Below, piece after piece: positions 12,192 to 62,410 of a DNA stretch of 64,000 bases. How positions within the stretch are numbered: position 1 is the stretch's first letter; every line of letters starts with the position of its first letter. The translations under genes and the position numbers were made by a program. The DNA is taken from the NCBI GenBank assembly GCA_963674745.2, contig CAXXDV010000003.1:238478-302477 (forward strand), read 5' to 3'. A model generated the notes under the pieces. It saw only the letters and a list, made by a program, of their open reading frames with translations. It was not told the DNA's origin and did no database searches. The DNA comes from Desulfosudaceae bacterium (GTDB lineage Bacteria > Desulfobacterota > Desulfobacteria > Desulfobacterales > Desulfosudaceae).

Positions 12192-13688
12192 CTAAAACCG
12201 GAAATAAATAAATGGATTATAGGCCCCGTTATATAGATGTATCATGGAAAGAAACATGACAAGGCCGCCCCATACCAGAAGTGATGCCTGTAACAAGGTA
12301 TAACACGGGTTGAAGCCGCCCTGCCGAGGCTGCCATTGCTGTTTCAAACGGGTAAAGGCGACAACCGGCAGGCCGGTGGCAGCCACCACGCCCACGATCA
12401 TGGAAAGCAATACCGGAGCAGAGGCGAATTCCGAAAAAGAGCGGGCATAAGCGTAAGAACCCGGGTCGCCCAGAAGGGCTCTGGTATAAAGCCAGGCCTG
12501 GCTCATATCTTCGGACCGGAAAACGATCCAGCCGGTCATTACGACCAGCAACGCGTATCCATGCCGGAAGACGTGAGGTGTCCGCTGGAGAACGCGTTCA
12601 AATCCGGCCCGTTCAATAACCAGGAACAGACCGTGCCAGCCCCCCCAGAGCACAAAGTTCCAACTGGCGCCATGCCACAATCCGCATAGCAGAAAGACAA
12701 TCCAAAGGTTCAGGTAAGTACGCCGTTGGCCGGCTCGATTGCCGCCCAGGGGGATGTATAGATAATCCCGCAGCCAGGTGGAAAGGGAAATGTGCCAGCG
12801 CTGCCAGAATTCACGGATTGACTTTGAAATATAAGGATAGTTGAAGTTCTCAGGAAAATGAAAACCCAGCATCAGCCCAATCCCGATGGCCATATCGGAA
12901 TAGGCGGAAAAATCAAAATAGATCTGCAGGGTGTATGCCGCGATGCCCCACCAGGCAACGGCCGTTGAAAGCTGATTCGGGGGCATGTTGAATATGGCGT
13001 CAGCCGCCTGGGCGATGATGTTGGCGAGGAGGACTTTTTTGGCCAGGCCGACAACAAAGCGTCTGGCACCGGCTGCGAATTGTGACCGCTCATTGCTTCG
13101 TTTGACAAGTTCGGCGGAAATTTGATTGTAGCGGACGATGGGGCCTGCCACCAGCTGGGGGAACATGGAAATATAACAGGCCAGCTGGTCAAAGCGCCTG
13201 GTGGCCACGGCAGTGCCGCGGTACACGTCAATGATGTAGCTGAGCGCCTGAAAGGTATAAAAACTGATCCCCAGCGGCAGGCTGATTTCCGCCACATCGC
13301 GCAGCCGTGTCGCGTCGATGCCCAGCCATTGTGCTATGGCGGCAACGTTGTTCAAGGCAAAGTTGGCGTATTTGAAATAACCCAGAAAACCGAGGCATAA
13401 AACCACGGTGACAGCCAGAACCCATTTGCGGCCGGCAGATTTTCCATTGCCTTCACCGCTCTGCGTTTCTGCCTCACCGTTGCTCAATAGAATACCGGCA
13501 ATCCACACCACAGCGATCAGGGCCACCATTCCGATTACCAGTTGCGGTTCACCCCAGGCGTAAAATATGAGGCTGAAGACCAGTAAAACCCCGTTGCGCA
13601 ATCGTACAAACCGGGCAGGCACCAGAAAATATGCGGCCAGCATTAACGGTAAAAAAAAATGCAGGAATATAAGCGAACTGAAAACCAT
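12192..13688 (-). CDS. MBOAT family O-acyltransferase (AlgI/DltB-like)
   Basis: It is a multi-TM protein with FWQRWHISLSTWLRDYLYIPLGGNR, the canonical MBOAT His motif. Confidence 0.9.
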   Translation of the reverse strand: MVFSSLIFLHFFLPLMLAAYFLVPARFVRLRNGVLLVFSLIFYAWGEPQLVIGMVALIAVVWIAGILLSNGEAETQSGEGNGKSAGRKWVLAVTVVLCLGFLGYFKYANFALNNVAAIAQWLGIDATRLRDVAEISLPLGISFYTFQALSYIIDVYRGTAVATRRFDQLACYISMFPQLVAGPIVRYNQISAELVKRSNERSQFAAGARRFVVGLAKKVLLANIIAQAADAIFNMPPNQLSTAVAWWGIAAYTLQIYFDFSAYSDMAIGIGLMLGFHFPENFNYPYISKSIREFWQRWHISLSTWLRDYLYIPLGGNRAGQRRTYLNLWIVFLLCGLWHGASWNFVLWGGWHGLFLVIERAGFERVLQRTPHVFRHGYALLVVMTGWIVFRSEDMSQAWLYTRALLGDPGSYAYARSFSEFASAPVLLSMIVGVVAATGLPVVAFTRLKQQWQPRQGGFNPCYTLLQASLLVWGGLVMFLSMIHLYNGAYNPFIYFRF

Positions 13689-31808: not shown

Positions 31809-33329
31809 CTATAATGTGCTTTTTTCTGTCCATCCCCGGGAGCGTTTCACGGCTTCTTTCCAGGCATGGTAAAGTTTTTTTCTTTCCGGTCCGGGCATCT
31901 GCGGCTGCCATTCTTTGTCCTTGGCCCAGTTGGCCGTAAGGGATTCTTTTTTGTCCCAGTATCCCACGGCCAGGCCCGCGGCATAAGCCGCGCCCAGCAC
32001 GGTCGATTCGGTCACGGCCGGGCGGATCACCGGTATCTGCAGCATGTCCGACTGAAACTGCATCAGAAAATCGTTGGCGGCCATACCGCCGTCCACCTTC
32101 AGGGACTTTAAATCAATACCCGAGTCCTTGGCCATGGCATCGAATATTTCGGCTGCTTGAAAGGCGGTCGCTTCCAGCGTCGCCCGGGCCAGATGGCCTT
32201 TGTTGGCGTAATGGGTCAAACCGATCAGCAACCCCCGGGCCGTGCTGTCCCAGTGCGGGGCGAACAGGCCGGAAAAGGCCGGCACAAAATAGACGCCGCC
32301 GTTGTCGTTCACGGTCCGGGCCAGATCCTCAACCTGGGGTGACTCGATAATCAGCCCGATATTATCCCGCAGCCACTGCACCAAAGAACCGGCAATGGCG
32401 ATGGATCCTTCCAGGGCGTAAATTGCCGGTTCCTGACCGATTTTGTAAGCAACCGTGGTCAGCAGGCCATGGCGTGAGGGCGTGATCTTCCGGCCGGTAT
32501 TGACCAGCATGAAACATCCGGTGCCGTAGGTGTTTTTGGCTTCCCCCGGCTCGAAACAGACCTGGCCGAAGAGGGCGGCCTGCTGGTCGCCTAGAATGCC
32601 GGCCACGGGTGTACCTTCATCAACGCCCCAGCCCGAACATAAATGGCCGTATACGTCGCTCGAGGGTTTTATTTCGGGCAGCATGGTTTCGGAAATACCC
32701 ATGACCTTCAGAATGTCCTTGTCCCATTCCAGGGTGTGCAGGTCCATCAGCAGGGTCCGGCTGGCGTTGGTTACATCGGTGACGTGGACCCCTTTGTCCG
32801 GACCGCCGGTCAGCCACCAGACCAGCCAGGTGTCCATGTTGCCGAACAGGGCGTTTCCCTGCCCGGCGGCCTGCCGGGCTTCTTCACAGTTGTCCAGGAT
32901 CCATTTTATTTTAGGCCCGGAAAAATAGGTGGCCAGGGGCAGGCCGGTTTTGTCCCGGAACCGGTCGACCCCGCCGTCCGCGGCCAGCTCGCGGCAGATG
33001 CCGTCGGTGCGGGTGTCCTGCCAGACAATGGCATTGTAAAACGGTTGGCCGGTCCGTTTGTCCCAGACAACCGTTGTCTCGCGCTGGTTGGTGATGCCCA
33101 CCGCGGCAATGGCATCAGGGAGAATATTCTTTTTCTCCAGGGCGCCGGCAATGACGGCGGCCGTGTTGGTTTTGATCTCCATGGGATCGTGCTCGACCCA
33201 GTCCGGCTGGGGGTAAATCTGACGATGCTCGAGCTGATGGCTGGAGACGATGGTGCCCTTCCGGTCAAATACGACAAAACGGGTGCTGGTGGTACCCTGA
33301 TCTATGGCGGCGATATATTTCCCGGTCAT
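31809..33329 (-). CDS. glpK: Glycerol kinase
   Basis: Full-length match to the GlpK pattern: [37 protein letters not shown] and [15 protein letters not shown]. Confidence 0.95.
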
Positions 33330-34239: not shown

Positions 34240-35288
34240 GGTTTTAAAGTTTTAGGGTTTTAGGTTTTAAGGTGGTTAAGTGATTAAGTGATTAAGTGAT
34301 TAAGTGATTATGTGGGCCCGGGTTTTCGAAAGGTTACGCTTTATATGCTCAGCTTTGACAGATCGAAAATTTGTTCTTTTTACCAGCATTTAGGGGTGAT
34401 AAGCGTTAGCGCATCCACTATTGAATTTTGAGAAAAGCATGTTAACCTAAAGATGTGCCGGAAGATCTTGTAGTTGGAATTATTTTGGTTTTTATAGCAA
34501 TTTCATAAAAAACAAGGCATGACCCAACTGGGGTCGGAGCAACTTGCACGGCCGGAGGTGCCCGCCTTTCCAGCCTTATGTGAAAATTTTAGATAAAGTT
34601 AAGGCTTGTAAATGCTATCAGACATTTGGAGTGACAACATGACTAACAGTTTTTTCGGAAAAATCATAATTTATTCATTTAGTGGTTTCATTATTGGTAT
34701 TTTGATTCTTATTGCAGCATTGAAAACTGAGACTATACCGATTTTAGGAGCTTTTTTGACTTTATCCATAAACCTGCGAGCTGGTTGGCTTATTTTTGGT
34801 CAGATATACTAAAATTGCCCCCACAGAGTGAATTAGCTTTCGCAGTCGTGCCAATGGTCGCAGCAGTATTGCAATGGACCTTTTTGGGCTTTCTCTTTGG
34901 GTTATGGAAAAAATAAAAGTTCTTGTGTTTTGCACCCCGGCAACAAGTTGCCGGGGCCACCCGAGGCCGGGGCAATTAGAACTGACGGGGTTATTTGTAC
35001 GGCCGGGGTGGCACTGACAACTTGTTGTCAGTGTGCGAAGCAAAAGAGGACTTTGAGAAACAGCCACGCCATTGGGCACGGCACGCCGTGCCCCTACATA
35101 GTCATTTCGAATTTCAATCCTTAAACTTTAAAATCCCTACCTCTCCAGAAAACCTGACAACTTACCCATCTAATCACCTAAAACTTAAAAACCCAACACA
35201 CTCGCACAGCAGGCCCTTAATCAAATAACCACCTAACCACTTAATCACCTAAAACCTTAAAACCTTAAAACCCTAAAACTTTAAAACC
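34240..35288. repeat. Composite repeat E enclosing about 0.8 kb of AT-rich cargo
   Basis: The left arm (34240..34316) includes GGTTTTAAAGTTTTAGGGTTTTAGGTTTTAAGG followed by about four GTGATTAA units plus variant units. The right arm (35214..35288) is its imperfect reverse complement. The interior contains hairpin GGGCACGGCACGCCGTGCCCCTAC (35074..35098). Confidence 0.6.
34612..34812 (+). CDS. Hypothetical two-TM peptide (possibly a gene remnant)
   Basis: This 66-aa hydrophobic ORF lies in the AT-rich interior of repeat E. A second hydrophobic reading (34815..34917) in another frame suggests a decayed membrane-protein gene. Confidence 0.25.
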   Translation: MLSDIWSDNMTNSFFGKIIIYSFSGFIIGILILIAALKTETIPILGAFLTLSINLRAGWLIFGQIY

Positions 35289-36991
35289 TTGCATGCCTTT
35301 TCGGCGGTGGCGGCAAGCTTCGGAAACAATTCGGTAACATTCGCTTCCAGGGCGCGGATATTCCTTATCAAACTATCAACCGCCGCGGGGATATACGGTT
35401 CAAACTGGGTTTTGTGCTTTTTGCGGGTCAGAAAGCCGAAGGCGCCCAGGGCCTGGAGGTTCCGGGTAACGGCGCAGCAGGCATAGCCTTTGTGGAAATC
35501 GTTTGTATTTACCGATTGTTGAGATGATAATCCAATGATGTAATCGTCCAGCAGCTGTCTCTGAGTATCTACTTGAAGATTGACGTAGGGATCGATCAGC
35601 AGAGACGCCAGGTCATACTGGATGGGCCCGCGGCGGGCGCCCTGAAAGTCGATAAAAAAAGGCTGATCATTGCTGATCATGATGTTGCGGGACTGCATGT
35701 CACGATGAACGAGGCCGGAGACGGCATATCTCAAGGTCAGGTCGGCCAGGCGGGAAAATTCTTCTTCCAGGCTCATGTCGGCGGGGTCCAGGCCGAGGTA
35801 GCCGGCCAGAAATTCGTCTTTAAAATACCGGCATTCCCGGTCAATGATGACGTTACGGTCATAGGACGGGGTCTGGTATGCCCAGGCATCATCAAAATCT
35901 TCGGCACCTTTGATGGCCAGTTCCAGCAGCCGCTCGATAACCGGCCGGTAGAGCCGGATGACCGTATCGTCGTCAGTAGCAGCACGGACAGCATCCTGAA
36001 GACTGACGTCACCCAGGTCCGCCATAAAGGCCAGTCCGGCCAGGGGATCGGACAGGTATATCCGGGGCACGGCAATGCCTTTTTTAAACAGATGGCGGTT
36101 GATCATCGTGAAAGCCCTGGCTTCGCCTGTCTCGTCCGTGGTGCAAAGACCCCGATCACACGCAACCAGGGTGCCGGCTGAAGAATGAACACGAAACCAG
36201 CGGGTATCGGAGCCATCGGCGGCAAGAGGTTCAATCTTGGTGACGGTATCAACGCCGAAAGCCGCCTGCAGGGCCTGGCGGCTCATCTTTTCAAAAGCGA
36301 TTTCCCGAAAGGCTTCAGGCGTGCCGATATCCTGCCATTGATGGCCTTGTGCGATACAGGCGGCAATGGTTTGTCCGTCGGCCAGCAGGTCTGAATAGAC
36401 ATCGATGATGTCGACAAAAGTGCCGGGGGGGATACGGTCCAGTAAGCGGGGATGGATGACATGGATACCGGTAAAGGCCAGCAGGCGTTCTCCCCCGGGG
36501 CGGGCATCGGCCGCCCGGTAAAAGCGGGCCACCCGGTCACGATCGTCGACAGCCACGGAGTTGAATCTTTCACAATCGTGCAGGACCATGGTGACGTCAT
36601 GATCATGCCGCAAATGAAAACGGTAAGCACTTTCAAGGTCAATGTCGGTGATAATATCACTGTTGATTACCACAAAGGGGGTGTCGCCGAAAAAACCGGC
36701 ATTGTTTTTCATGGCCCCGGCCGTACCCAGGATGTCCGGCTCGAACGAGAGCCGGACCGGAATGTCGTAGTCGCGACTTTCGCAATGGGTTTTAATTTTT
36801 TTCGCCAGATGATGGGTATTAATGGTCACGCCACTGCAACCGGCCGTTGTCAGTTGTTCGATGATGATATCCAGAATTGGCACATTGTTGATGGTAAACA
36901 GGGGTTTGGGCAGATGGCGGGTATAAGGCCGCAGCCGGGTGCCGTACCCGGCTGCCAGAATCAGGGCTTTCCATGGCGGTAAACGGGTCAT
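35273..36991 (-). CDS. Fused sugar-1-phosphate nucleotidylyltransferase / anomeric sugar kinase (MurU-AmgK-like)
   Basis: The N-terminus has ILAAGYGTRLRPYTRHLPKPLF (NTP_transferase). The C-terminus has LVHRDMQSRNIMI..IDFQGARRGPIQYDLASLLIDPY (APH/AmgK-type kinase). Confidence 0.7.
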   Translation of the reverse strand: MTRLPPWKALILAAGYGTRLRPYTRHLPKPLFTINNVPILDIIIEQLTTAGCSGVTINTHHLAKKIKTHCESRDYDIPVRLSFEPDILGTAGAMKNNAGFFGDTPFVVINSDIITDIDLESAYRFHLRHDHDVTMVLHDCERFNSVAVDDRDRVARFYRAADARPGGERLLAFTGIHVIHPRLLDRIPPGTFVDIIDVYSDLLADGQTIAACIAQGHQWQDIGTPEAFREIAFEKMSRQALQAAFGVDTVTKIEPLAADGSDTRWFRVHSSAGTLVACDRGLCTTDETGEARAFTMINRHLFKKGIAVPRIYLSDPLAGLAFMADLGDVSLQDAVRAATDDDTVIRLYRPVIERLLELAIKGAEDFDDAWAYQTPSYDRNVIIDRECRYFKDEFLAGYLGLDPADMSLEEEFSRLADLTLRYAVSGLVHRDMQSRNIMISNDQPFFIDFQGARRGPIQYDLASLLIDPYVNLQVDTQRQLLDDYIIGLSSQQSVNTNDFHKGYACCAVTRNLQALGAFGFLTRKKHKTQFEPYIPAAVDSLIRNIRALEANVTELFPKLAATAEKACKVLKF

Positions 36992-39618
36992 GCCAGAAGC
37001 ATCAGGTAATTACGGATGGTGTCTTCATAAAAATCGGCCTTGGTCCGGTCGTCGCCCTTGACCAGGGGTTCACCCGAAAAGAACCGCAGCGCGTTTTTGA
37101 TGGTCGGGGTGGAAACCGCTTCTAAGCATTCGATCTCGTTGTTTTTATACATGCGGCGGCCGTGGTTCAGCGCTTTTTTAATCATTTCTTTGGCATCCGA
37201 TGTTTTCGGCTCCTGTCTTAAAAAGGTCAGGGCGATCAAGTAGGACTCAAAATAAGGCGTCAAAAACGAAGAAAAGAGTTTCAGTTTTTTGAATCCGTCC
37301 GAAGTCAGGTCGAAGTTGCCGGGTATTGATTTATGGGGTGTCAGCATGCCCCGTTCAATAAAGGTGCTGACGCTCTTTTTGGTAAAATATTCGGAATCCT
37401 TGTCGGTCTGCAGAACAAATTCATTTCTGAAGAATTTACGCAGAAAGTTGAACTCCTTGTGAATGTCCAGGCTGGCGAACTGAAAATTGTCGATCTTGAG
37501 GATGGACAGGGCCGTAAAAGCGGCCGGAACAAAAAAGATGATGCAGTTGTTTTTATAATATTCCATGGCCGGCCGTTTGCTTTCGTTGACCATGTACAGG
37601 GGGTTTTCCAGGTCCGTGTCAATCTGAAATCGTTCGATGAACTTGCGCTGGATAAACGAATCCAGGGCTATGCTGAAAGCGTGGTTATGATCGCTGGTAA
37701 TCGTGTCCGAAAGCCGGACATCCATTGATTTGAGGCAGACCAGGTAGGTGTTGATGATGTCCATCAGGTACTGATAGGTAAAACGCCGCTGGGGGCAGTT
37801 TAAAATGGCGCTGGAGACGATCCCGTAAGGCGTGATGGTGGTAACGTCATTTATGCGGTTGATCAGGATGCGGGAAAGCCGGTCGATAAACTGCTTTTTG
37901 TCTTCCGCGGATTTGCCGGTCAAAGATGAGCGGGTCCGGGACAGGAATTCGTTCAATGAGACCGGCTCGTTGAAATTGACATACACTTTTCCGTATCGGG
38001 ATTTTAAGGACTTTCTGGCCTTGATCAGGGCCGGCAGGCTTTCCGCCTTTTTTTCACCGCCTTCGGATTCGTGAACGTAGGCAGCCTCCTCGATGATCCG
38101 GTCATAACCGATATTGACCGGCACAAAGATCATGTCCGGGCAGGCACCGTTTTCATAAGCGTCCAGCAGGATGGACAGCAGCCCGGTTTTGGGCGTCAGG
38201 GTTTTGCCGGTTCTGCTGCGGGTACCTTCCAGAAAGAATTCAATACTGAATCCTTCGGCAAGCAGTTTGTACATATATTCTAAAAAAACTTTGGCATACA
38301 GTTTCTGCCCCTTGAACGTCCGTCTCATGAAAAAGGCGCCGCCGCCGCGGAAGATGGTCCCCATGGGCCAGAAAGACAAATTCTGACCGGCCGCGATATG
38401 CGGGCAGGCCATGTTGTTATGGTATAGGACATAAGACAGCACCAGGTAATCGATATGGCTTTTGTGGGTGGGCACAAATATCAGGGGCGCACGTTCGGAT
38501 TCTTTTTTCAGTTTTTCCAGGTTGTCCTGATCGATGGCGATACCGTCGAAAATATGTTTCAGCATCCAGGTCAGGACCAGGTCAAACATCATGATCCAGT
38601 TCAGGTTGTAATCGGCGGCAATTTCATCAAGGAAACGGTAGGCTTCCTTGTTGATGTCGCGCACCTGGCGATCGGTATTTATGGCCATCTCTTCGACAAA
38701 CGACTGCAGCCGGGGGCTGGCCATGATGTTTTCCTTGATTTCTTCCCTGGACTTGATGATCGGCCCGGTGACGCGCTGCCGAAGGCGGTTGATGGACATC
38801 AGCACCATTCGTCGCAAGGCCAGGGCCTGGTTGTCGGCCGACATTTCCCGGATATCGGGCTGACGCAGAAAATCGCGCAGGTCAATGGGGTCGGCCATTT
38901 CAACGAAAATGTTTTTTGATCTGGAGACCAGCAGAAAAAGACGGCGCAGGATGCCGGGCCTTTGCGCCAGGCCGCCGAACATTGAATCCAGAAGGCTGAA
39001 TTTCGCCCTGGCCGGACGCCTGGAAAAGAACATGTTCTGGGGCACGATATAAATCGGGCGATCGATGGATTTCTGAATGGCGATCAGTTCCTGGACGGGG
39101 TTGCTCTTTGATTTGATAAGTCCCCGGTAAAAGGCCTTTCTGCCGAACAAGGAAAAATAGGCCGTGCGGCCATTGGTGAGTTCTTCTTTGAAATACTGGT
39201 TCTTGTACGGAGAAAGAATCGAAAACCGGGTCAGCAGATGATCGATATGGGCCATCACCACCACAAAAATCCTGGATACCGGTTGCGCCAGAAACAACCG
39301 ATAGCCGAGGGCCAGTTCCGGCGCCGGCAGGTCGTGCTTGTGGTATTGCCGGTTGCAGTAAAAAAAATCCAGCTTGCTTTTGTATTTGCCGGCATAAACA
39401 ATGACACCGGTCTGGTTCAGCCGGTTAACCAGATCCGTCATGTCGTTGTTGACCGTTACCCGGGAAAAAAGAAACTCCGTCAGCCGGCTCGATGGCCGCG
39501 CTTTTCCGTTGGGCAGGAAGCTGAGAAAATGATTGTGGGTGCCGCCTAAAAGCCGCTGCCGGCCGTTGCTGAAAAAACGTCCCAAAGCAGCAGATATTTT
39601 TTTGATCCAGTTTGCCAT
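36988..39618 (-). CDS. plsB: Glycerol-3-phosphate acyltransferase
   Basis: It has VPTHKSHIDYLVLSYV (HX4D), FFLEGTRSRTGK and a size above 850 aa. The start is placed at ATG 39618; the ORF extends to 39669. Confidence 0.85.
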   Translation of the reverse strand: MANWIKKISAALGRFFSNGRQRLLGGTHNHFLSFLPNGKARPSSRLTEFLFSRVTVNNDMTDLVNRLNQTGVIVYAGKYKSKLDFFYCNRQYHKHDLPAPELALGYRLFLAQPVSRIFVVVMAHIDHLLTRFSILSPYKNQYFKEELTNGRTAYFSLFGRKAFYRGLIKSKSNPVQELIAIQKSIDRPIYIVPQNMFFSRRPARAKFSLLDSMFGGLAQRPGILRRLFLLVSRSKNIFVEMADPIDLRDFLRQPDIREMSADNQALALRRMVLMSINRLRQRVTGPIIKSREEIKENIMASPRLQSFVEEMAINTDRQVRDINKEAYRFLDEIAADYNLNWIMMFDLVLTWMLKHIFDGIAIDQDNLEKLKKESERAPLIFVPTHKSHIDYLVLSYVLYHNNMACPHIAAGQNLSFWPMGTIFRGGGAFFMRRTFKGQKLYAKVFLEYMYKLLAEGFSIEFFLEGTRSRTGKTLTPKTGLLSILLDAYENGACPDMIFVPVNIGYDRIIEEAAYVHESEGGEKKAESLPALIKARKSLKSRYGKVYVNFNEPVSLNEFLSRTRSSLTGKSAEDKKQFIDRLSRILINRINDVTTITPYGIVSSAILNCPQRRFTYQYLMDIINTYLVCLKSMDVRLSDTITSDHNHAFSIALDSFIQRKFIERFQIDTDLENPLYMVNESKRPAMEYYKNNCIIFFVPAAFTALSILKIDNFQFASLDIHKEFNFLRKFFRNEFVLQTDKDSEYFTKKSVSTFIERGMLTPHKSIPGNFDLTSDGFKKLKLFSSFLTPYFESYLIALTFLRQEPKTSDAKEMIKKALNHGRRMYKNNEIECLEAVSTPTIKNALRFFSGEPLVKGDDRTKADFYEDTIRNYLMLLA

Positions 39619-39867
39619 GATGAGATCCCAAGTGTGATAAGATGTTAAGTCTCGGGTCGAATAAAACACAGTTATTAATTATTCGCTGATACCAGATTGA
39701 GGTGCGATTTGCAACAAGATATAGATCTTTCGTTAATGTTTACAAACCGATCAACCATATCTTCAGATATTGTGAAACAGTTGACGATGACGGATGATCC
39801 AGACTGCTTTTCACCTTGACACAGGTCGTCCGGTTTAGTAGGAAAATAAAAAGTTTAGAGATACCCT

Positions 39868-40030
39868 TATGTGATCGGTCGGTTAACGGAACCCGGTGGA
39901 AATCCGGGGCGGTCCCGCCGCTGTAACCCTGACAGGCGCTTTTTTGGAAGATGGCCACTGTGTCGTTTAAACGATGCGGGAAGGCTGAAAAAGCACGGGG
40001 AAGCCAGAAGACGAGCCGGGCGGTCGATAT
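39868..40030 (+). promoter_or_regulatory. Cobalamin (B12) riboswitch aptamer
   Basis: Conserved core GGTTAACGGAACCCGGTGGAAATCCGGGGCGGTCCCGCCGCTGTAA, GCCACTG...GGGAAGGC and a B12-box-like AGCCAGAAGACGAGCC. It lies upstream of cobT on the same strand. Confidence 0.8.
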
Positions 40031-40110
40031 GTGTGGAACCTGATGGTAAAGGGTTTTGGCAGGAGTTTTATTTGTATTCCTGCCGGAACCCTTTTTTTAT
40101 GGGAAGGTAA

Positions 40111-40206: not shown

Positions 40207-41271
40207 ATGAAACAGCTTGAAGAAACGATAAATGCGATTGTTCCGGTGGATGAGAAAATTTTTGAACAGGCTCGCCAGCGACTGGCCGACCAGGCCAAGC
40301 CGGCCGGCAGTCTGGGGGTGCTCGAAGACGTTTCGGCCCGTCTGGCGGCCATTACCGGGACCCTGGACGTGCGGTTGAAGAACAAGATCATTATTGTCTG
40401 TGCCGGTGATCACGGTGTGGTTGATGATGGTGTCAGCCTGTTCCCCCAGGAGGTGACCGCCCAGATGGTGTACAACTTTGTGGACGGCGGTGCGTCCATC
40501 AATGTTCTGGCCCGGCATGCCGGGGCCGAGGTCAAGGTGGCCGATCTGGGGGTGAATTATGATTTTGAACCGGATCTGCCCGTATTTCACAAAAAAATCG
40601 GCAAGGGTACCGCCAGTTTCGCTCACGGTCCGGCCATGACCCGGGAAGCGGCCGTGGCCTCAATCTGTGCCGGAATTGAAATCGTGGAAGAACTGTTTGC
40701 GGCCGGTCCGGTGGACATGATCGGCACCGGCGACATGGGCATCGGCAACACCACGCCCTCTTCGGCTATTATCGCGTCCTTTTCCGGCCTTGATCCGGCT
40801 GATTTGACCGGTCGCGGCACGGGTATCGACGATGAAGGCTGGAAGAAAAAAGTGGCGGTTATCCGCCAGGGCCTTGAGGTTAACAACCCGGACCCGGCCG
40901 ATGCCATTGATGTCCTGGCCAAGGTCGGCGGATTTGAAATCGGCGGCCTGGCCGGACTGGTGCTGGGATCTGCCGCCCGGGGCATCCCGGTGGTGTGTGA
41001 CGGCCTGATTTCCACGGCCGGGGCGTTGATCGCCTGCGAGCTGGCACCGACAGCAAAACAATATGTGTTTGCCAGCCATGTTTCGGTCGAGGCCGGACAC
41101 AAATTCATGCATGAGCGTTTGGGACTGGCCCCTCTGCTTGACCTGAAGCTACGGTTGGGCGAAGGCACCGGTGCGGCCATTGCCATGGAGTTGCTGGATG
41201 CGGCCACCCGTGTCCTGGCGGAGATTAAAACCTTTGCCGAGGTGAACATCAGGGATGTGCAGAAAGGATAG
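40207..41271 (+). CDS. cobT: Nicotinate-nucleotide--dimethylbenzimidazole phosphoribosyltransferase
   Basis: Motifs are KPAGSLGVLED, CAGDHGV, GDMGIGNTT and LRLGEGTGAA. The SD AGGAGG lies upstream. Confidence 0.9.
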   Translation: MKQLEETINAIVPVDEKIFEQARQRLADQAKPAGSLGVLEDVSARLAAITGTLDVRLKNKIIIVCAGDHGVVDDGVSLFPQEVTAQMVYNFVDGGASINVLARHAGAEVKVADLGVNYDFEPDLPVFHKKIGKGTASFAHGPAMTREAAVASICAGIEIVEELFAAGPVDMIGTGDMGIGNTTPSSAIIASFSGLDPADLTGRGTGIDDEGWKKKVAVIRQGLEVNNPDPADAIDVLAKVGGFEIGGLAGLVLGSAARGIPVVCDGLISTAGALIACELAPTAKQYVFASHVSVEAGHKFMHERLGLAPLLDLKLRLGEGTGAAIAMELLDAATRVLAEIKTFAEVNIRDVQKG

Positions 41272-53595: not shown

Positions 53596-54363
53596 ATGAT
53601 GGTTTTAACCGAGTATAAATCGCCGGAAGAAATCAGGCATTCGCTTGGAAAAGCCCGGGGTGTTGTGGTGTTTTCCTGCAGCGGGTGCGCCAACATGAAT
53701 GAGATCGGCGGCCGGCGCGGGTTAAAATTCATGAAAAAACGCCTTTCGGCATGGGGATATTCGGTTGTCGCCGGTGCAACCCCTCCCGGTATCTGCATGA
53801 ACGCGGTTATGGAAAACGCGACTCATAAATGGATTCAGCCGAACAGATCAAAGGTGGACGCGCTTCTTGCCATCTGCTGTGCTGCGGGAATAAAAAACGC
53901 CGCTTATTTTAATCCCGATCTCAAGGTGGTTGCCGCTGCCGATCCCATGGGCGTGGAATGCCTGCTGCCCCACAATGCATATTATGAAGATGCCGGGGAT
54001 TATATGGTGGCCCATGAACTGTGCCTGCCCTGCGGAAGCTGCGTTTTGTCCTTTACCACCGGGATCTGTCCGCTGGTGGCATGCCCGGCAAAATCAAAAT
54101 ACGGCTATTGCAAGAACCCGCCTTACCCGGGGAATGGTTGCACAGTTAAGCCTGATCAAAAATGCGTCTGGGCAATAATCGAAAAACGGGGTGGTGACCT
54201 CGAAGGCCTGGGGAAATTAAAAGAGATTCATGAAAATCCGGATTATGAAAGAATTCCTTCTATTGACACACCGCCCCGGACCGTAAAACAGCACACAATC
54301 GCAGGATACTGCGGCGGTCGGTCACCATCATTCATATCGGATCTTTTACGCTGGGTAAGGTGA
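53596..54363 (+). CDS. MetV-like Cys-rich protein (methylene-THF reductase small-subunit / MTHFR_C-like), paralogue 1
   Basis: Motifs are VVVFSCSGCANM, LAICCAAGIK, CLPCGSCVLSFTTGICPLVACPAKSKYGYC and CVWAIIEKRG. The SD AAAGGGGG lies upstream. Confidence 0.6.
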   Translation: MMVLTEYKSPEEIRHSLGKARGVVVFSCSGCANMNEIGGRRGLKFMKKRLSAWGYSVVAGATPPGICMNAVMENATHKWIQPNRSKVDALLAICCAAGIKNAAYFNPDLKVVAAADPMGVECLLPHNAYYEDAGDYMVAHELCLPCGSCVLSFTTGICPLVACPAKSKYGYCKNPPYPGNGCTVKPDQKCVWAIIEKRGGDLEGLGKLKEIHENPDYERIPSIDTPPRTVKQHTIAGYCGGRSPSFISDLLRWVR

Positions 54364-54405: not shown

Positions 54406-55179
54406 ATGTTTCAGACAAAATATAAATCCGAGGAGGAGCTGCAATATTCGCTTCGGAATTTTCAGAAAGTGGGCATCATTTCCTGTAATGTATGCTGCAA
54501 CCTGAGTGATTGCGGCGGACAACAGGGGCTGGAATTGATGTCCGGGTTTTGCCGGAACTGGGGGAAAGCGGTCGTGGCGGACTGCCTGATTTTTGGCGGC
54601 TGTGTCGGTACGGTTCATGAGCACGCGGTGAAAAAGCGGATATATCCTCATCAATCCGATATCGATGCGCTGGTTATGATCAGTTGCGCAGCCGGTATTA
54701 AAACGGCCAACCTCTACAGCCCGGGTCTCCCCGTGGTGGCGGCCTGCGATTCATTCGGATCTTATCCCCTGTCGCCGAGGCAGGGCCCCAATGACAGTCT
54801 TACGATACACACCTATTGCCCGATATGCCCCGACGGTCATTGCGTCATGTCTTATACCGCCGGAATATGCCCGGTTGTGCTGTGCCCTGAAAAATGTCGC
54901 TATGGCTATTGTGAAAACCCGCCCCAATCCCCAAACAGGCAATGCACGAAAGATGAAAACATGGCATGCGTGTGGAAAACCATTGAAGAAACCATTGCGC
55001 AAAGAGGCGAAAGCCTTGATTCCCTGAAGGAATTAGAGCAGATCCACGCGGACAAAACCCTGCGGCGGATGCCGACCCCTGAAACGGAACGGGCCGCCGG
55101 CTGGCAGATCAAAATGGCGCAATGGTTCAGCCTGAATGTATTAAATCGCGTGGCGGATTCATTGCATGCCGCCAGGTGA
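54406..55179 (+). CDS. MetV-like Cys-rich protein, paralogue 2
   Basis: It shares the architecture of 53596..54363: GIISCNVCCNL, MISCAAGIK, CPICPDGHCVMSYTAGICPVVLCPEKCRYGYC and CVWKTIEE. Confidence 0.6.
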   Translation: MFQTKYKSEEELQYSLRNFQKVGIISCNVCCNLSDCGGQQGLELMSGFCRNWGKAVVADCLIFGGCVGTVHEHAVKKRIYPHQSDIDALVMISCAAGIKTANLYSPGLPVVAACDSFGSYPLSPRQGPNDSLTIHTYCPICPDGHCVMSYTAGICPVVLCPEKCRYGYCENPPQSPNRQCTKDENMACVWKTIEETIAQRGESLDSLKELEQIHADKTLRRMPTPETERAAGWQIKMAQWFSLNVLNRVADSLHAAR

Positions 55180-55218: not shown

Positions 55219-56436
55219 ATGGAAAGAAAACTGTTGAAAAAGCTGCACCGGCTTGGGGACATCATGAATAACGAGTCGGAATTTCCGATGACGGTTATCC
55301 GGTGGTATCTGGTGCCGCCGGTTTACAGATGGTATTTCAAGCCGCTTTACAAGGCCATGGCAGCCGTCCTGCCTGAAGCGGAAATCGATTTTTTACTGAA
55401 GTTGAAAAATGATCGATTGACCAAAAAACAGTTGCGGGAACGGGTGGGCGGTCCTGACGAAACCTTTGACGACCTTTTTAATTCCCTGATAACCAGAAAA
55501 GCCGTTCTCTGGTCGGAGGCCCGCCAGGACGGCGAGGAAGTTTTCAGAATAGCGCCCATGATGCTGGGATGGATGGAGTTAAGCTGCTCTGACGGAAACA
55601 TTACACCGGACAAAGAAGCCTTTTCCCGTGAACTGACGAAGTTTTTTAATAGAGTAAAACTGATGAATTTTTTCGGGGTGCGTAACGTCATTAACCAGAT
55701 TTTTTTCGGTCTGGGGCCGATGTCCGGGATCGCCCGGCTGCCGTTGAAAACAGAGACCGAAGAACAGATCAAGATCCAGGTCGGGCAGTCGCTCGATATC
55801 CCCGAAGCCAGGATATACAGTACCGGCAGCGTTAATAACCTGATTGAAAAATACGGTAATGACGACCAGATCGCCGTCACCAAGTGCCTCTGCCGCCAGC
55901 ACTGGGCACTGGAGGGCGAGCCCTGCCGGTTGGATCTTCCCCTGGAAACCCATTTATGGATTGGGCCGTTTGCCGACCATGTCGTCAAATATGGCTATGG
56001 CCGCCGGGTTTCAAAGGAGGAAGCCTATGAAATAACCAGGACGGTCCGGGACAAAGGGGGAGTGCATGAAATCATGCATACCAGAATGGACGTGAACCAG
56101 GAACCCGGGTTGTCTGTCTGTAACTGCTGCTGGGACTGCTGCACGGCCCTTGGCAATTACAACCGGGGGCTGACGCCCCTGGCCCTTAAAGCCTATTACC
56201 GGGCGGTTATTGCCGATGAAACCAGATGCACCAACTGTGGTAAATGCGTGGAATTTTGCCCGGTGAGTGCCATGCAGCTCAAAAACGGTCGGCTATGGCA
56301 TGATCCGGGTTTATGCATCGGTTGCGGACAGTGCGAATACCAGTGTCCTGAAGATGCGGTCAGCCTGGTGCCGGATGAACGGGTGGTAAAACTGGGTCTT
56401 TTGAAAAAATCAAAAAGAAAACCGGCCTTTCAATAA
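55219..56436 (+). CDS. Uncharacterised Fe-S protein with C-terminal 2x[4Fe-4S] ferredoxin domain
   Basis: Motifs are CLCRQHW..C, CNCCWDCC, CTNCGKCVEFCP and CIGCGQCEYQCP. The SD AAGGAGAGG lies upstream. Confidence 0.65.
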   Translation: MERKLLKKLHRLGDIMNNESEFPMTVIRWYLVPPVYRWYFKPLYKAMAAVLPEAEIDFLLKLKNDRLTKKQLRERVGGPDETFDDLFNSLITRKAVLWSEARQDGEEVFRIAPMMLGWMELSCSDGNITPDKEAFSRELTKFFNRVKLMNFFGVRNVINQIFFGLGPMSGIARLPLKTETEEQIKIQVGQSLDIPEARIYSTGSVNNLIEKYGNDDQIAVTKCLCRQHWALEGEPCRLDLPLETHLWIGPFADHVVKYGYGRRVSKEEAYEITRTVRDKGGVHEIMHTRMDVNQEPGLSVCNCCWDCCTALGNYNRGLTPLALKAYYRAVIADETRCTNCGKCVEFCPVSAMQLKNGRLWHDPGLCIGCGQCEYQCPEDAVSLVPDERVVKLGLLKKSKRKPAFQ

Positions 56437-58865: not shown

Positions 58866-59918
58866 TCATGGCCGGGGCAGATCCGCAGGTTGTTTGACGG
58901 TCATGGCTGTTGTCAGAAGTTCGGTATAGGTGATATTTCCGGACAGGGTCAGGGCGGTATTGCCCTGTACCCAGCTCAGGGATGAAAAAGGGCCGAAAAA
59001 ATTCAGGTAGCCGGTATACGCCCCGATTTTTACCCTGACGCCTGAAGGTTGGCTCCACTGGCCGGCCAGGGCCCGCATCTGGGTCAGGGTGATGTAACGG
59101 CCGTTTTTGTGAACCACGACCATGGCCATGGGCAGGCAATGCCGGCCTCTGATGATTTTTTTCACTTCCAGCCCCCGGGGAAGGTCGGTCGGCATCAGAA
59201 AATCAAAGTTCATTTCTTTTGCGATCTCAGCTTTGGGGCTGCCCGGGTCGGTAATGTCAAAATCAAAGACAACCGCGTTGGGCGGCAGGGTAATCTCAAA
59301 AAGATCGTCCTCGACGCGGATATTGTATTTTATCCGGGTAAATGCCACTTCATACCAGGTATGGTCGGGCCGGTCGAGAATCTGAACACGCAGGGGAACG
59401 GAAAATTCTTTGTCCGTCCACGAGGTATAGGGCAGCAGCCAGGGTTTTTTCTCGGTGGGGCTGGCTTTCCACCCTGTGGCCGGCCGGGCTACCGTCATTT
59501 TATCGCCCAGGAATTGAAAATCGTAATGCCCCCAGAGCCAGGCCACGTCTTCTTCGAGTAATTTTTTATAGTCGGCTTCATCCAGTGGATCAAATCCGGT
59601 GACCCGTATGCCGAAAAGCGATTGGGGCCACCACATGGTCATGGCCCGGCCGTCAAACAAAAACAGCTGACCGGCCAGGGATTTGGGGGCTGTTGTTTCA
59701 GCCCGTACCCGCCATGGTTTTTTATACCATATCTCGGTGACATTTCCGGGGGCGTCGTTACGCCCGAAATGTTCTTCATATGTGCCATGATAGGATGCTA
59801 TGGACATGGTGTTGTCGGCAATCTGGTCGGCGATGACATCGGCCATTATGGTCGAGCAGGAATAAAACGTCATCGCCAGGGATACGGTTATTAACGCTAT
59901 CTTGTTCATTGCGTTCAC
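58866..59918 (-). CDS. LolA-like / DUF4367-like exported protein
   Basis: It has a signal peptide (IALITVSLAMTFYSCS), then an N-terminal LolA/RseB-like pattern (YHGTYEE..., WYKKPWRVRAE, LFDGRAMTMWWP). The family assignment is by pattern recall only. Confidence 0.5.
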   Translation of the reverse strand: MNAMNKIALITVSLAMTFYSCSTIMADVIADQIADNTMSIASYHGTYEEHFGRNDAPGNVTEIWYKKPWRVRAETTAPKSLAGQLFLFDGRAMTMWWPQSLFGIRVTGFDPLDEADYKKLLEEDVAWLWGHYDFQFLGDKMTVARPATGWKASPTEKKPWLLPYTSWTDKEFSVPLRVQILDRPDHTWYEVAFTRIKYNIRVEDDLFEITLPPNAVVFDFDITDPGSPKAEIAKEMNFDFLMPTDLPRGLEVKKIIRGRHCLPMAMVVVHKNGRYITLTQMRALAGQWSQPSGVRVKIGAYTGYLNFFGPFSSLSWVQGNTALTLSGNITYTELLTTAMTVKQPADLPRP

Positions 59919-59923
59919 CTCTC

Positions 59924-62410
59924 TTACCAGAAGATTTTATCGGTTGTGTCAAACATCCATGGCGCGGTTAACAGAAACAGCGCCACTGTGGTTAGAAAAA
60001 AAGGATAGATCCATTTTTGCGGAACCCCGGCAGGGAAACATAATTTTTCCGCCACCACCATCAGACCGTTGACCGGAAAAAACACAAAGACCCCCCAGGA
60101 CCAACGGCCGGTGGCAACCCCGGTCATGGCCGCGGTCATTCCTCCGATCATTGCAAATATCGCCATAACGGCAATCACCGGCCGGTTTCGTCCGTCCAGC
60201 GGAATATAGACGTGACGCAACAGAAAATCACCCAGGGGGATGTCCCAGGCCCGCCATAATCCTGAGGGCGGCAGGGGACCGAAAGGCCTGTACCCAAAGG
60301 CATCCGGAAGCTTGTAGCCGGCCTGGCGCCACAAGGCGTTCGACCAGTCCAGTGCGCCTCTTAACACCAGGTACAGGCACAATAACCGCCCGAATATCAG
60401 CAAAACGTGCAAGGCCGTGGTGCCTGACGCGGTAACGATCCAGCCGGCCAGAAAAAAACCGAGCACCAGTCCGGCCAGCAGCCTGAAAAATCCGGCATAG
60501 CCTGACAGCCAATGGCGTGAAAAATGTACTTTGGTCGTATCCGGTGAAAAACTGTTCTTGTAGTCCAGGGTGGGGAAAAACAGTATGAATGAGATCACCC
60601 GGGCGGTCATCCGGCGCTGAATTGGATCGACCAGCAGTACATCATAACTTTTGAATAGAAAGATAATCGAGAAAAGCATCAGTAGAAACGACCATTCGCT
60701 GTCGGCCGGATGCAGGATCATGGCGGTCAACACCAGGGGGATGGTGATCAAGCTCGGCAACAAAAGGAACAGGCGGGACCCGGCTGGGGACCATTTTTCG
60801 TATGCCACCCGGGCCAAGCGGCCCGTCAGCCAGGTGCCGATCCAGTAAAACAGTACGAAAACGACCAACACCGGTGCCACCGGCGGATATTTGATCGGCC
60901 AGTGGCCGGCGGCGGCATCGGATATCCATCTATATCCCCATATGCCCGCTATCAGCCATATGATGATCGGAATAACAGCGGAAAAAACAGACAACGGACC
61001 GGATACCTTTTGCCATAAAAGATACCAGTAATGGAAAAAGATCCAGAGCAGGTTGCCCGCAGGATAGATAAAAGGCATCTTTCCGCCCATCAGGGGAAAA
61101 GTCTGTTTTTCTTTGCGGGACACCGGCCAGGGTGACCGCGTTTTACCCAGTCGCCTGACCCACATGCGGTAATATGCGCGGTAGGTCAGGTTCATGGCCC
61201 AGAAATCCGCATTCTGGGCAAACCGGAAATTGGCCGCGTTAAACGAACGGGCCAGGATCGACCGAAAACTGTAGAACCGGTCTAAAAATCGTCGGGCGCC
61301 CTGGTAGATTAAATCCTCCGACAAACCGCCGACATCGGCCATTACGTGGGCACCGTCGTATTTGCGTATATCCCGGGTTATCAGTTTATCCTGGTCTTTT
61401 AAGGTTTCATAATCGGGCGTCCCCGGAAACCAGGTGGCGATATTGGTGGAAGCCAGGAACACACCGGCCTCTTCACAGAAACGATAGGTGTCGTCAAAGG
61501 ACTGAACGCTTTGCCCGGTCAGGCCCCACATCAGGCCGGTATGGACAAAAATGCCATGGGACTGGACTTTCCTGATGATGCGGGCATATTCCTCAACCGG
61601 GTTGAATCCTTTTTGGGCCTGGGCCAGTACATTTTTTTCAACCGATTCCATTCCCACAAATACGACTTTGCATTGGCTTCGCTCCAGGTGTTTGAGAAGC
61701 TTGTCGTCATCAAGCGAGGCCAGGGTGGCTTCGCCCATCCATCCCCAGACACCCTTGTTCTCCAGGAGCCGGCAGACCTCGATGATGTAATCCCGGTCGG
61801 CCGCGAAATGCAGGTCTACCGCCTCTACCAGTCCGTGGTCCCAATGGTCAAGCTCTCGCTCGATGGATTCCAGGCTGCGGGTCCTGAAGCCGGGCAGAAA
61901 GTGACGGCCGAAACAAAAGGAGCAACGATGCGGGCATCCCCGCGAAAACTCTATGGGAAAATTCACCCAGTAATATTTACCCGCCTTTTGAAGGTCCCTG
62001 CGGGGCAGGTGCTCGCCCCAGTTTTTAGGCGGTTGCGCCAGCCGATAAACGCCTTTTAAACGACCCTGTTCGGCGTCGGCGATAATCTTTTCTCCCAGTC
62101 CTTCGACTTCGCCGACCACCACCGCGTCAAAATGTTCCAGAGCCCGATCGGTCATGACCGAAGCCGGACCGCCGAGAATAGTGGGTATGCCCAGTTCCCG
62201 GAACCGGTCCGCCAGGTAAAGGGCCCGGGGAAAATTATAGGCCTGGGCGGATATGCCGATCAGGTCGGCGGCAGAAAAATTCACCGGTTCGATATTCTCA
62301 TCGTTGATTTCAACTTCGGCATAGCGACCGATTTCGGCTGCCACTGTCGGCAACCGGACCTGGCGGTAGCGGGGAATGGCCAGCGGCATATCAATGAGAC
62401 GAACGATCAT
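59924..62410 (-). CDS. B12-binding-domain radical SAM enzyme fused to a polytopic MBOAT-like membrane domain
   Basis: The N-terminal part (about 440 aa) has a B12-binding-like domain (LIGISAQAY..GIPTILGGP) and FSRGCPHRCSFCFG (CX3CX2C). The C-terminal part (about 390 aa) has about 10 TM helices and ends in LWRAWDIPLGDFLLRHVYIPLDGRN, MBOAT-motif-like with WH replaced by WD. Confidence 0.75.
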   Translation of the reverse strand: MIVRLIDMPLAIPRYRQVRLPTVAAEIGRYAEVEINDENIEPVNFSAADLIGISAQAYNFPRALYLADRFRELGIPTILGGPASVMTDRALEHFDAVVVGEVEGLGEKIIADAEQGRLKGVYRLAQPPKNWGEHLPRRDLQKAGKYYWVNFPIEFSRGCPHRCSFCFGRHFLPGFRTRSLESIERELDHWDHGLVEAVDLHFAADRDYIIEVCRLLENKGVWGWMGEATLASLDDDKLLKHLERSQCKVVFVGMESVEKNVLAQAQKGFNPVEEYARIIRKVQSHGIFVHTGLMWGLTGQSVQSFDDTYRFCEEAGVFLASTNIATWFPGTPDYETLKDQDKLITRDIRKYDGAHVMADVGGLSEDLIYQGARRFLDRFYSFRSILARSFNAANFRFAQNADFWAMNLTYRAYYRMWVRRLGKTRSPWPVSRKEKQTFPLMGGKMPFIYPAGNLLWIFFHYWYLLWQKVSGPLSVFSAVIPIIIWLIAGIWGYRWISDAAAGHWPIKYPPVAPVLVVFVLFYWIGTWLTGRLARVAYEKWSPAGSRLFLLLPSLITIPLVLTAMILHPADSEWSFLLMLFSIIFLFKSYDVLLVDPIQRRMTARVISFILFFPTLDYKNSFSPDTTKVHFSRHWLSGYAGFFRLLAGLVLGFFLAGWIVTASGTTALHVLLIFGRLLCLYLVLRGALDWSNALWRQAGYKLPDAFGYRPFGPLPPSGLWRAWDIPLGDFLLRHVYIPLDGRNRPVIAVMAIFAMIGGMTAAMTGVATGRWSWGVFVFFPVNGLMVVAEKLCFPAGVPQKWIYPFFLTTVALFLLTAPWMFDTTDKIFW

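Follow-up and report, generated by a model that had tools for sequence, protein, structure and literature searches.

A radical-SAM–MBOAT fusion protein linked to an RseB/LolA-like lipoprotein that elsewhere accompanies an FA_hydroxylase

A 64,000-nucleotide (nt) stretch of the genome of a Desulfosudaceae bacterium (GenBank assembly GCA_963674745.2, contig CAXXDV010000003.1, positions 238,478–302,477; hereafter the window) carries on its reverse strand a pair of genes encoding a fusion protein and a predicted lipoprotein (Table 1). In the fusion, a B12-type radical S-adenosylmethionine (SAM) enzyme is joined to a membrane domain with the fold of the membrane-bound O-acyltransferases (MBOATs). 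The original prediction, a reading of the sequence alone, had described an 828-amino-acid (aa) open reading frame (ORF) and a LolA-like ORF beginning 5 nt downstream, and both are present in the ORF list, separated by that 5-nt gap. The two motifs it quoted, SRGCPHRCSFCFG and LWRAWDIPLGDFLLRHVYIPLDGRN, occur in the fusion at residues 157–169 and 718–742, respectively. In the deposited gene call the downstream gene, which we refer to as the partner, starts 9 nt further in, from an ATG at position 59909, to give a protein of 347 aa (P0121). The next gene, for an ADP-forming acyl-CoA synthetase, lies 253 nt from the partner, and the intervening stretch contains a promoter-like site; the module in the window is therefore a two-gene unit.

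The fusion belongs to a family of its own. A word-indexed search of sequences from NCBI, JGI, ENA and Logan recovered about 29 full-length clusters (813–877 aa, 33–59% identity), and the named taxa among them (Planctomycetota, Thermodesulfobacteriota, Candidatus Schekmanbacteria and Elusimicrobiota) span at least four phyla. The family counts given below are based on an alignment of 27 of these proteins, each of which was also scanned individually against Pfam: Radical_SAM was matched by all 27, B12-binding (PF02310) by 24 (best E value 8e-8) and MBOAT by 21. The radical-SAM half is strongly conserved in this alignment and the membrane half weakly so. A chimeric assembly or a gene-calling artefact that joins two unrelated genes is vanishingly improbable as an explanation for an architecture common to so many independent full-length clusters, and one that AlphaFold2, run with the family alignment, models confidently (pLDDT 90.2, pTM 0.86). 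One apparent exception, a standalone membrane protein without the catalytic histidines (P0124), turned out to be a frameshifted fusion cut by the end of its contig; the protein P0125 is an N-terminally truncated fragment, with a DUF4070-like trace in the radical-SAM extension region.

The family is rare. An exhaustive HMMER scan of 1.84 billion representative sequences with the membrane half returned about six strong relatives, all of them fusions or fusion fragments, followed by a weak tail of ordinary MBOAT or MBOAT_2 proteins. When the family alignment was searched against the GTDB species genomes, the only relatives among the matches listed were standalone radical-SAM proteins of about 450 aa with at most 35% identity, and the longer proteins among those matches were tandem radical-SAM pairs, not fusions. 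Such standalone B12-type relatives (L023, L041, L050, L060, L070 and L084) are often encoded as tandem paralogue pairs, and at those of their loci that we examined neither the partner, an FA_hydroxylase nor a membrane-domain neighbour was found. We found no account of a radical-SAM–MBOAT fusion in the full-text literature, in line with the earlier supposition that the protein is uncharacterised. The components all come from known superfamilies; it is the architecture and the module that appear to be undescribed.

Table 1. Features of the fusion gene and the partner gene, in window coordinates and in order of transcription
Feature	Position	Strand	Basis
Fusion gene, 828 aa, ATG start: B12-type radical-SAM half and MBOAT-fold membrane half	59924..62410	-	ORF, Pfam, AlphaFold2, Foldseek, homologues
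N-terminal Rossmann-like, B12-binding-type domain, about residues 1–125	62036..62410	-	PF02310 in relatives, Foldseek
Radical-SAM core, residues 153–312	61475..61954	-	PF04055, E 2.3e-16
CxxxCxxC [4Fe-4S]/SAM motif, C159, C163 and C166	61913..61936	-	Invariant in 27/27 members
C-terminal radical-SAM extension and amphipathic linker helices, residues 313–439	61094..61474	-	DSSP helices 365–419
MBOAT-fold membrane domain, residues 440–828, about 9–10 transmembrane helices, catalytic region without His	59927..61093	-	hhalign, Foldseek, hydropathy
MBOAT signature region, residues 716–792	60035..60265	-	Pfam MBOAT
D723 (position of DltB His289)	60242..60244	-	Residue mapping
T759 (position of DltB His336)	60134..60136	-	Residue mapping
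Partner gene: RseB/MucB-like (LolA superfamily) two-domain lipoprotein, 350 aa, GTG start	58866..59918	-	ORF, hidden Markov models, adjacency
Signal peptide ending in lipobox-like Cys21 (codon 59856–59858)	59856..59918	-	...TFYSC in the window
MucB/RseB N-terminal (LolA-like) domain match, residues 119–205	59304..59564	-	Pfam E 8.5e-4, sub-threshold
C-terminal small domain (DUF4367/RseB-C-like), about residues 230–345	58884..59231	-	DUF4367 over threshold in L004 and L005

Architecture of the fusion protein

The N-terminal half scores 60.9 bits against the Radical_SAM model (PF04055; threshold 29.5) and carries the CxxxCxxC motif, which places it in the radical-SAM superfamily; because the fusion has no further cysteine triad, an auxiliary cluster is not expected. 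Foldseek searches of the PDB with this half returned the class-B radical-SAM enzymes AprD4, MgmA, OxsB, CysS, TsrM and TokK (E values 1e-14 to 1e-10), in alignments of roughly 420–540 columns that cover the B12-binding-type domain, where a pair of glycines (G80–G81) is invariant across the family. By domain architecture and at the level of the family, profile matches and the predicted model thus assign the N-terminal half to class B, and the fusion may use cobalamin. Membership in a characterised group is not indicated. The best NCBIfam match is HpnJ (E 6.4e-21; 74.8 bits against a curated cutoff of 577.6), followed by BchE (E 3.6e-17; 62.4 against 481), and the models for PhpK (55 bits; cutoff 600) and HpnR (47 bits; cutoff 650) score lower, so the fusion is in none of these four equivalog families, every NCBIfam score being far under its cutoff. 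The linker loop (residues 421–447) is rich in lysine and arginine.

The window also holds a cobalamin riboswitch (Rfam RF00174, 79.7 bits; 39863–40034, forward strand) upstream of a gene for a CobT-type phosphoribosyltransferase (DBI_PRT, E 8e-133; 40207–41271, forward strand). On this basis the organism senses cobamides and at least remodels them, and the cofactor is plausibly available to the fusion. A related radical-SAM enzyme is joined to a lipid-handling membrane domain in a second, different way: in the 1,210-aa protein P0116 (L108, 2051–5683; L109, 2033–5665), an N-terminal MMPL/RND-type lipid-transporter domain precedes the B12-binding and radical-SAM domains, and the gene adjoins a PIN/MazE toxin–antitoxin pair.

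The C-terminal half had been read as an MBOAT-like domain of about ten transmembrane helices, and three lines of evidence now agree on the fold, the helix count coming from hydropathy and DSSP. Pfam MBOAT matches the signature region at 28.7 bits, barely over its gathering score of 27; Foldseek aligns the predicted structure of this half with DltB, DGAT1 and ACAT2 (E values 5e-5 to 5e-4); and an hhalign comparison of its profile with an AlgI-like protein encoded in the same window gave a probability of 96.7% (E 4.8e-10, 197 columns). Sequence searches of this half against the PDB returned nothing meaningful, and the relation emerged from the fold-level search. The AlgI-like protein is itself an intact MBOAT with both catalytic histidines (12192–13688, reverse strand), and adjoins a gene for an AlgX-type SGNH protein (PF16822; 10957–12189, reverse strand); the two form a classical polysaccharide O-acetylation pair that is unrelated to the module.

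To map the catalytic residues, the AlgI-like protein was aligned to DltB (6bug) and then, by hhalign, to the fusion profile. DltB His289 falls in the 'RWH' and the catalytic His336 in the 'GFWHG' of the AlgI-like protein, and their equivalents in the fusion are D723 and T759. The replacement of WH by WD that the original prediction had pointed out is real, and the invariant catalytic histidine further downstream is missing as well. Column 723 holds N in 21 members, D in three, F in two and H in one; column 759 holds F, A, L, T, S, C or M and never H; and at no column of residues 740–775 is histidine present in five or more members. Position 723 alone is not diagnostic, because short MBOATs that keep the catalytic histidine can also carry N there, as does P0127 (317 aa), a near standalone relative with the W-N variant and an intact catalytic histidine ('SGAIHEY'). 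This combination suggests that the membrane half descends from a short MBOAT clade and lost the acyltransferase residue. Judged by its residues, the membrane half is a pseudo-acyltransferase across the whole family, and the idea that it handles acyl groups as a catalyst does not hold up.

Few polar positions of the membrane half are conserved (K587, R604, N723, E788–K789 and D824). An acyltransferase that works through other residues, for instance N/D723 or E788–K789, would make the protein bifunctional, combining radical chemistry with acyl transfer. We consider this very improbable: conservation of K587, R604, N723, E788 and K789 and a Pfam MBOAT score just above threshold could be cited for it, yet the catalytic histidine that all 27 members lack is kept by their nearest standalone relatives, and the membrane half is poorly conserved next to the radical-SAM half.

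The lipoprotein partner and its alternative enzyme

The partner was proposed to be a LolA/RseB-like exported protein, and its relatives bear this out. Nearly all partners have a lipobox signal peptide, and at least 13 homologues carry a canonical L-(A/S/T)-(A/G)-C lipobox in the same place; because the signal peptide ends in the lipobox cysteine, the partners are predicted lipoproteins. Against the MucB_RseB threshold of 22.3 bits, the window copy falls short (19.4), whereas the copies at L004 (63.6) and L007 (25.0) pass. The partner family profile matches the PDB structures of RseB and MucB at E 2e-5 (RseB 2p4b, E 2.3e-5) and also LolA-superfamily 'lipoprotein-sorting' proteins, and it is collinear with RseB into the C-terminal domain, although its match to the RseB C terminus is weak. 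At family level the partners thus have the two domains of RseB/MucB, an N-terminal LolA-like domain and a small C-terminal one, and they are not LolA itself (TIGR00547, E 0.087; 12.3 bits against an equivalog cutoff of 112). No sigma or anti-sigma gene is present in the module in the window or at any of the related module loci; a sigma-70-type gene about 7 kb away in L006 is not conserved.

Enzyme and partner are obligately linked. The partner adjoins the fusion gene at all 13 fusion loci (the window and 12 others), in either gene order, and in two of them, L096 and L100, the two proteins are fused in frame into continuous ORFs of 1,772 and 1,770 aa, respectively. As the junction sequences of these two loci differ, the natural fusion is genuine and not a sequencing error. 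In both, an arginine-rich loop follows the conserved E-K motif, and the last helix gives way to a hydrophobic segment that resembles a lipobox; this indicates that the C terminus of the enzyme faces the periplasm, where the partner sits. The partner gene is triplicated, at about 980 aa, in L004 (12473–15415) and L089 (2240–5176), and the triple form also occurs within the in-frame fusions (L096, 3943–6825; L100, 4006–6885); each of the repeats r1, r2 and r3 forms its own clade across loci, which makes the triplication an old one. Adjacency and in-frame fusion together identify the RseB/LolA-like protein as a true functional partner of the enzyme. The export role once ascribed to it is hypothetical; the lipoprotein may be a subunit of the enzyme, not a carrier.

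A metagenome scan with the partner (5-sequence alignment), followed by local tblastn, revealed a second kind of module. At eight loci without the fusion (L088, L093, L095, L097, L101, L102, L103 and L106), the partner is directly followed by a gene for a di-iron FA_hydroxylase. Five of these (L088, L101, L102, L103 and L106) have a cognate TetR gene directly upstream, and TetR orthologues with 48–63% identity flank the fusion loci L001, L002 and L094. The two enzymes occur together only once, at L094, in the order TetR–fusion–partner–FA_hydroxylase, for a tally of about 12 loci with the fusion only, eight with the FA_hydroxylase only and one with both. In a neighbour-joining tree, the partners associated with FA_hydroxylase, including that of L094, form one clade nested within those associated with the fusion. 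The FA_hydroxylase scores 91.5 bits on PF04116; among curated models it resembles only that of the ornithine-lipid hydroxylase OlsE, and remotely so (51.8 bits; cutoff 475). No FA_hydroxylase is encoded in the 64-kb window. The recurrent pair of RseB-like lipoprotein and FA_hydroxylase, without a radical-SAM protein, appears to be uncharacterised in its own right, and a search of the full-text literature found no description of a module of TetR, RseB-like protein and FA_hydroxylase either.

Beyond TetR and FA_hydroxylase, no conserved neighbours were found around the module loci. The lineages and genomic surroundings in which the fusion is found are typical for anaerobes: HydABC-like, Hdr-like and ADP-forming acyl-CoA synthetase genes are present in the window, and the fusion locus L007 has a cytochrome c3 gene. 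Genes for an extracellular contractile injection system (eCIS_core) lie within 10 kb of the module at two loci unrelated to each other, L004 (1–3291) and L088 (19561–20954), probably by coincidence. Elsewhere in the window, a cluster for lipid and head-group metabolism, about 20 kb from the module and without an evident link to it, comprises genes for a PlsB-type glycerol-3-phosphate acyltransferase of 893 aa (36988–39669), an NTP-transferase/APH-kinase fusion (35273–36991) and a glycerol-kinase-like FGGY protein (31809–33329), all on the reverse strand. The forward strand encodes two tandem paralogues with a cysteine-rich methylene-tetrahydrofolate reductase C-terminal-like domain (DUF5981; 53596–54363 and 54406–55179) and, after them, a 405-aa protein whose ferredoxin domain is of the 2x[4Fe-4S] type (55219–56436), an arrangement that resembles an uncharacterised redox trio.

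A candidate oxygen-independent lipid-modifying module

Our favoured explanation, which we hold tentatively, is that the fusion carries out O2-independent radical functionalisation of C–H bonds in a membrane-embedded lipid, with the lipoprotein as its periplasmic subunit or acceptor. The two genes would then make up an envelope module that is complete in itself. In this scheme, a 5′-deoxyadenosyl radical made by the class-B radical-SAM domain in the cytoplasm would functionalise an unactivated C–H bond; the substrate would be hydrophobic and embedded in the membrane, most probably a membrane lipid. The MBOAT-fold domain would probably be a non-catalytic gate or tunnel that draws the lipid out of the bilayer for delivery to the active site of the radical-SAM domain. 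On the periplasmic face, the RseB/LolA-fold lipoprotein would physically associate with the membrane domain at its C-terminal end, either as an accessory subunit or as an acceptor or carrier of the lipid.

The nature of the chemistry is suggested by the alternative enzyme. Radical-SAM enzymes need SAM and a reductant and hence have a cytoplasm-facing catalytic centre; members of the FA_hydroxylase superfamily are membrane-embedded, with a catalytic centre that also faces the cytoplasm, and require O2. Because the same partner, at five of eight loci together with TetR, pairs elsewhere with this O2-dependent enzyme, the fusion would probably be its O2-independent counterpart, carrying out a reaction of the desaturation or hydroxylation type on lipids of the same class. 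On the simplest reading, one periplasmic lipoprotein and one regulator common to both enzymes imply the same membrane-soluble substrate. Of the two substrates originally put forward, membrane lipids are the most plausible, a reading strengthened by the FA_hydroxylase exchange, and nothing specific points to lipid-linked glycans. Nor did we find anything specifically in favour of methylation or C–C coupling, the reactions first suggested; the swap with FA_hydroxylase points instead to chemistry of the oxidation type.

Several observations weigh against this explanation. The window's own module has no TetR, and no lipid-biosynthesis gene is linked to the module. The neighbour-joining tree of the partners carries no support values. 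The fusion protein of the window lies below detection by the Pfam B12-binding model, and AprD4, the top structural match, is a known exception whose B12-like domain does not bind cobalamin. The fold of the partner rests on hidden Markov model evidence only, as AlphaFold2 with a 3-sequence alignment reached a pLDDT of just 29.7. Finally, L094 has both enzymes, which could thus act sequentially and not as alternatives.

This last point leads to a serious rival, in which the fusion is a canonical B12-radical-SAM methylase or C–C coupling enzyme on a membrane lipid and the FA_hydroxylase is a separate, additional tailoring step. Most of the class-B radical-SAM enzymes characterised so far are methylases; MgmA, TsrM, TokK and CysS are among the structural matches, models of the HpnR and PhpK methylase type match weakly, the window has cobamide genes, and the single operon at L094 is compatible with a two-step pathway. 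This rival sits poorly with the near mutual exclusion of the fusion and FA_hydroxylase beside the same partner and TetR, with methylase equivalog scores that are all far under their cutoffs, and with a best structural match, AprD4, that is not a methylase. We regard the methylase or sequential-pathway explanation as unlikely, although it deserves to be taken seriously. Rather improbable, in our view, is a substrate other than a bilayer lipid: an exported polymer, or a molecule that is lipid-linked or periplasmic, to which an MBOAT-type transmembrane tunnel would give access and which the partner would hold on the outside. The bacterial MBOAT fold mostly serves trans-membrane modification of extracytoplasmic polymers (polysaccharides and teichoic acids in the case of AlgI, DltB and PatA), DltB is the best structural match of the C-terminal half, and the partner, a periplasmic protein, is coupled physically to its enzyme; however, a cytoplasmic radical-SAM active site must touch the C–H bond of its substrate directly, the module loci have no linked gene for a glycosyltransferase, polymerase or exporter, and the interchangeable enzyme belongs to a lipid-acting family.

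A further alternative concerns the partner only and is compatible with lipid functionalisation by the fusion. Instead of carrying lipid, the lipoprotein might regulate or activate the enzyme as a subunit, or sense envelope stress, much as RseB acts on RseA or GerS on CwlD; the module would then modify a lipid upon a periplasmic signal. Homology to RseB/MucB spans both domains of the partner, GerS, a lipoprotein of the LolA fold, is an allosteric activator of an enzyme (PMC8496864), and in-frame fusion to the enzyme argues for a stable complex over a shuttling carrier. With no sigma or anti-sigma factor linked to the module, we consider such a role for the partner unlikely.

Comparison with known systems

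To our knowledge, the way in which anaerobic bacteria functionalise inert lipid chains without O2 is largely unexplained; in archaea, B12-radical-SAM enzymes have repeatedly been the answer. The module described here is a compact two-gene bacterial candidate for this chemistry and comes with a built-in comparison, as in other lineages the enzyme beside this partner and regulator is an O2-dependent lipid hydroxylase. It might be the first case in which an MBOAT fold serves a radical enzyme as a lipid gate without catalytic function; with the RseB-like lipoprotein, the fusion would then form a trans-envelope machine through which strict anaerobes introduce, without O2, the lipid modification that their aerobic relatives owe to a di-iron FA_hydroxylase. 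We consider this full claim doubtful. If true, the module would be a bacterial counterpart of the archaeal Ted system and a new pair of the BchE/AcsF type for membrane lipids, the MBOAT fold could persist as a scaffold for substrate delivery after its catalytic histidine is lost, and RseB/LolA-fold lipoproteins could be dedicated subunits of inner-membrane lipid-modifying enzymes. The product could be a hydroxylated, desaturated or otherwise tail-modified lipid of anoxic environments, and a distinctive one, if any, could explain or create a biomarker for such settings.

The closest parallel is the archaeal Ted/Hgs system, a B12-radical-SAM tetraether desaturase with an AttH-like hydratase, in which Ted desaturates lipid tails without O2 in place of di-iron chemistry (Garcia et al. 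2025, bioRxiv 10.1101/2025.10.20.683597). Both systems have a B12-type radical-SAM enzyme for inert lipid tails, a task performed by di-iron membrane enzymes in bacteria and eukaryotes, and an overlapping or adjacent partner gene whose product handles, or in our case would handle, the same lipid. By its description, Ted is set apart: it is archaeal and acts on glycerol dialkyl glycerol tetraethers, the paper mentions no transmembrane or MBOAT-like domain, and its partner is the hydratase and not an exported RseB/LolA-like lipoprotein. The paradigm for pairing an O2-independent B12-radical-SAM enzyme with an O2-dependent di-iron one is BchE and AcsF, the anaerobic and aerobic Mg-protoporphyrin monomethyl ester cyclases, which catalyse the same step and are both carried by some organisms. 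BchE differs in its tetrapyrrole substrate and has neither a membrane domain nor a lipoprotein partner. HpnJ, HpnR and HpnP are likewise B12-type radical-SAM enzymes that act on membrane lipids, HpnJ being the best NCBIfam match, but the Hpn proteins have no MBOAT-like domain fused to them and no hopanoid genes lie near the fusion.

With the MBOATs (DltB, AlgI, PatA, DGAT1, ACAT and HHAT), the membrane half shares its fold and a homologous core that includes the W-R-x-W-(H/N)...Y-x-P-L-G-G motif, and the fusion family differs from them in lacking the catalytic histidine. DltB docks the carrier protein DltC at the place where the fusion family carries its cytoplasmic radical enzyme. The partner shares with RseB/MucB and LolA a lipid-binding fold family and, with RseB, two-domain collinearity; it differs from RseB/MucB in having no anti-sigma factor and in being a lipoprotein that is sometimes triplicated and sometimes fused to its enzyme. 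A precedent for a LolA-fold lipoprotein as the activating subunit of an enzyme is GerS–CwlD (PMC8496864). Last, the FA_hydroxylase, from the superfamily of lipid oxidases that includes OlsE, takes the place of the fusion beside an orthologous TetR and partner and is a membrane-embedded enzyme that oxidises lipid C–H bonds, but with an unrelated fold and cofactor and a requirement for O2.

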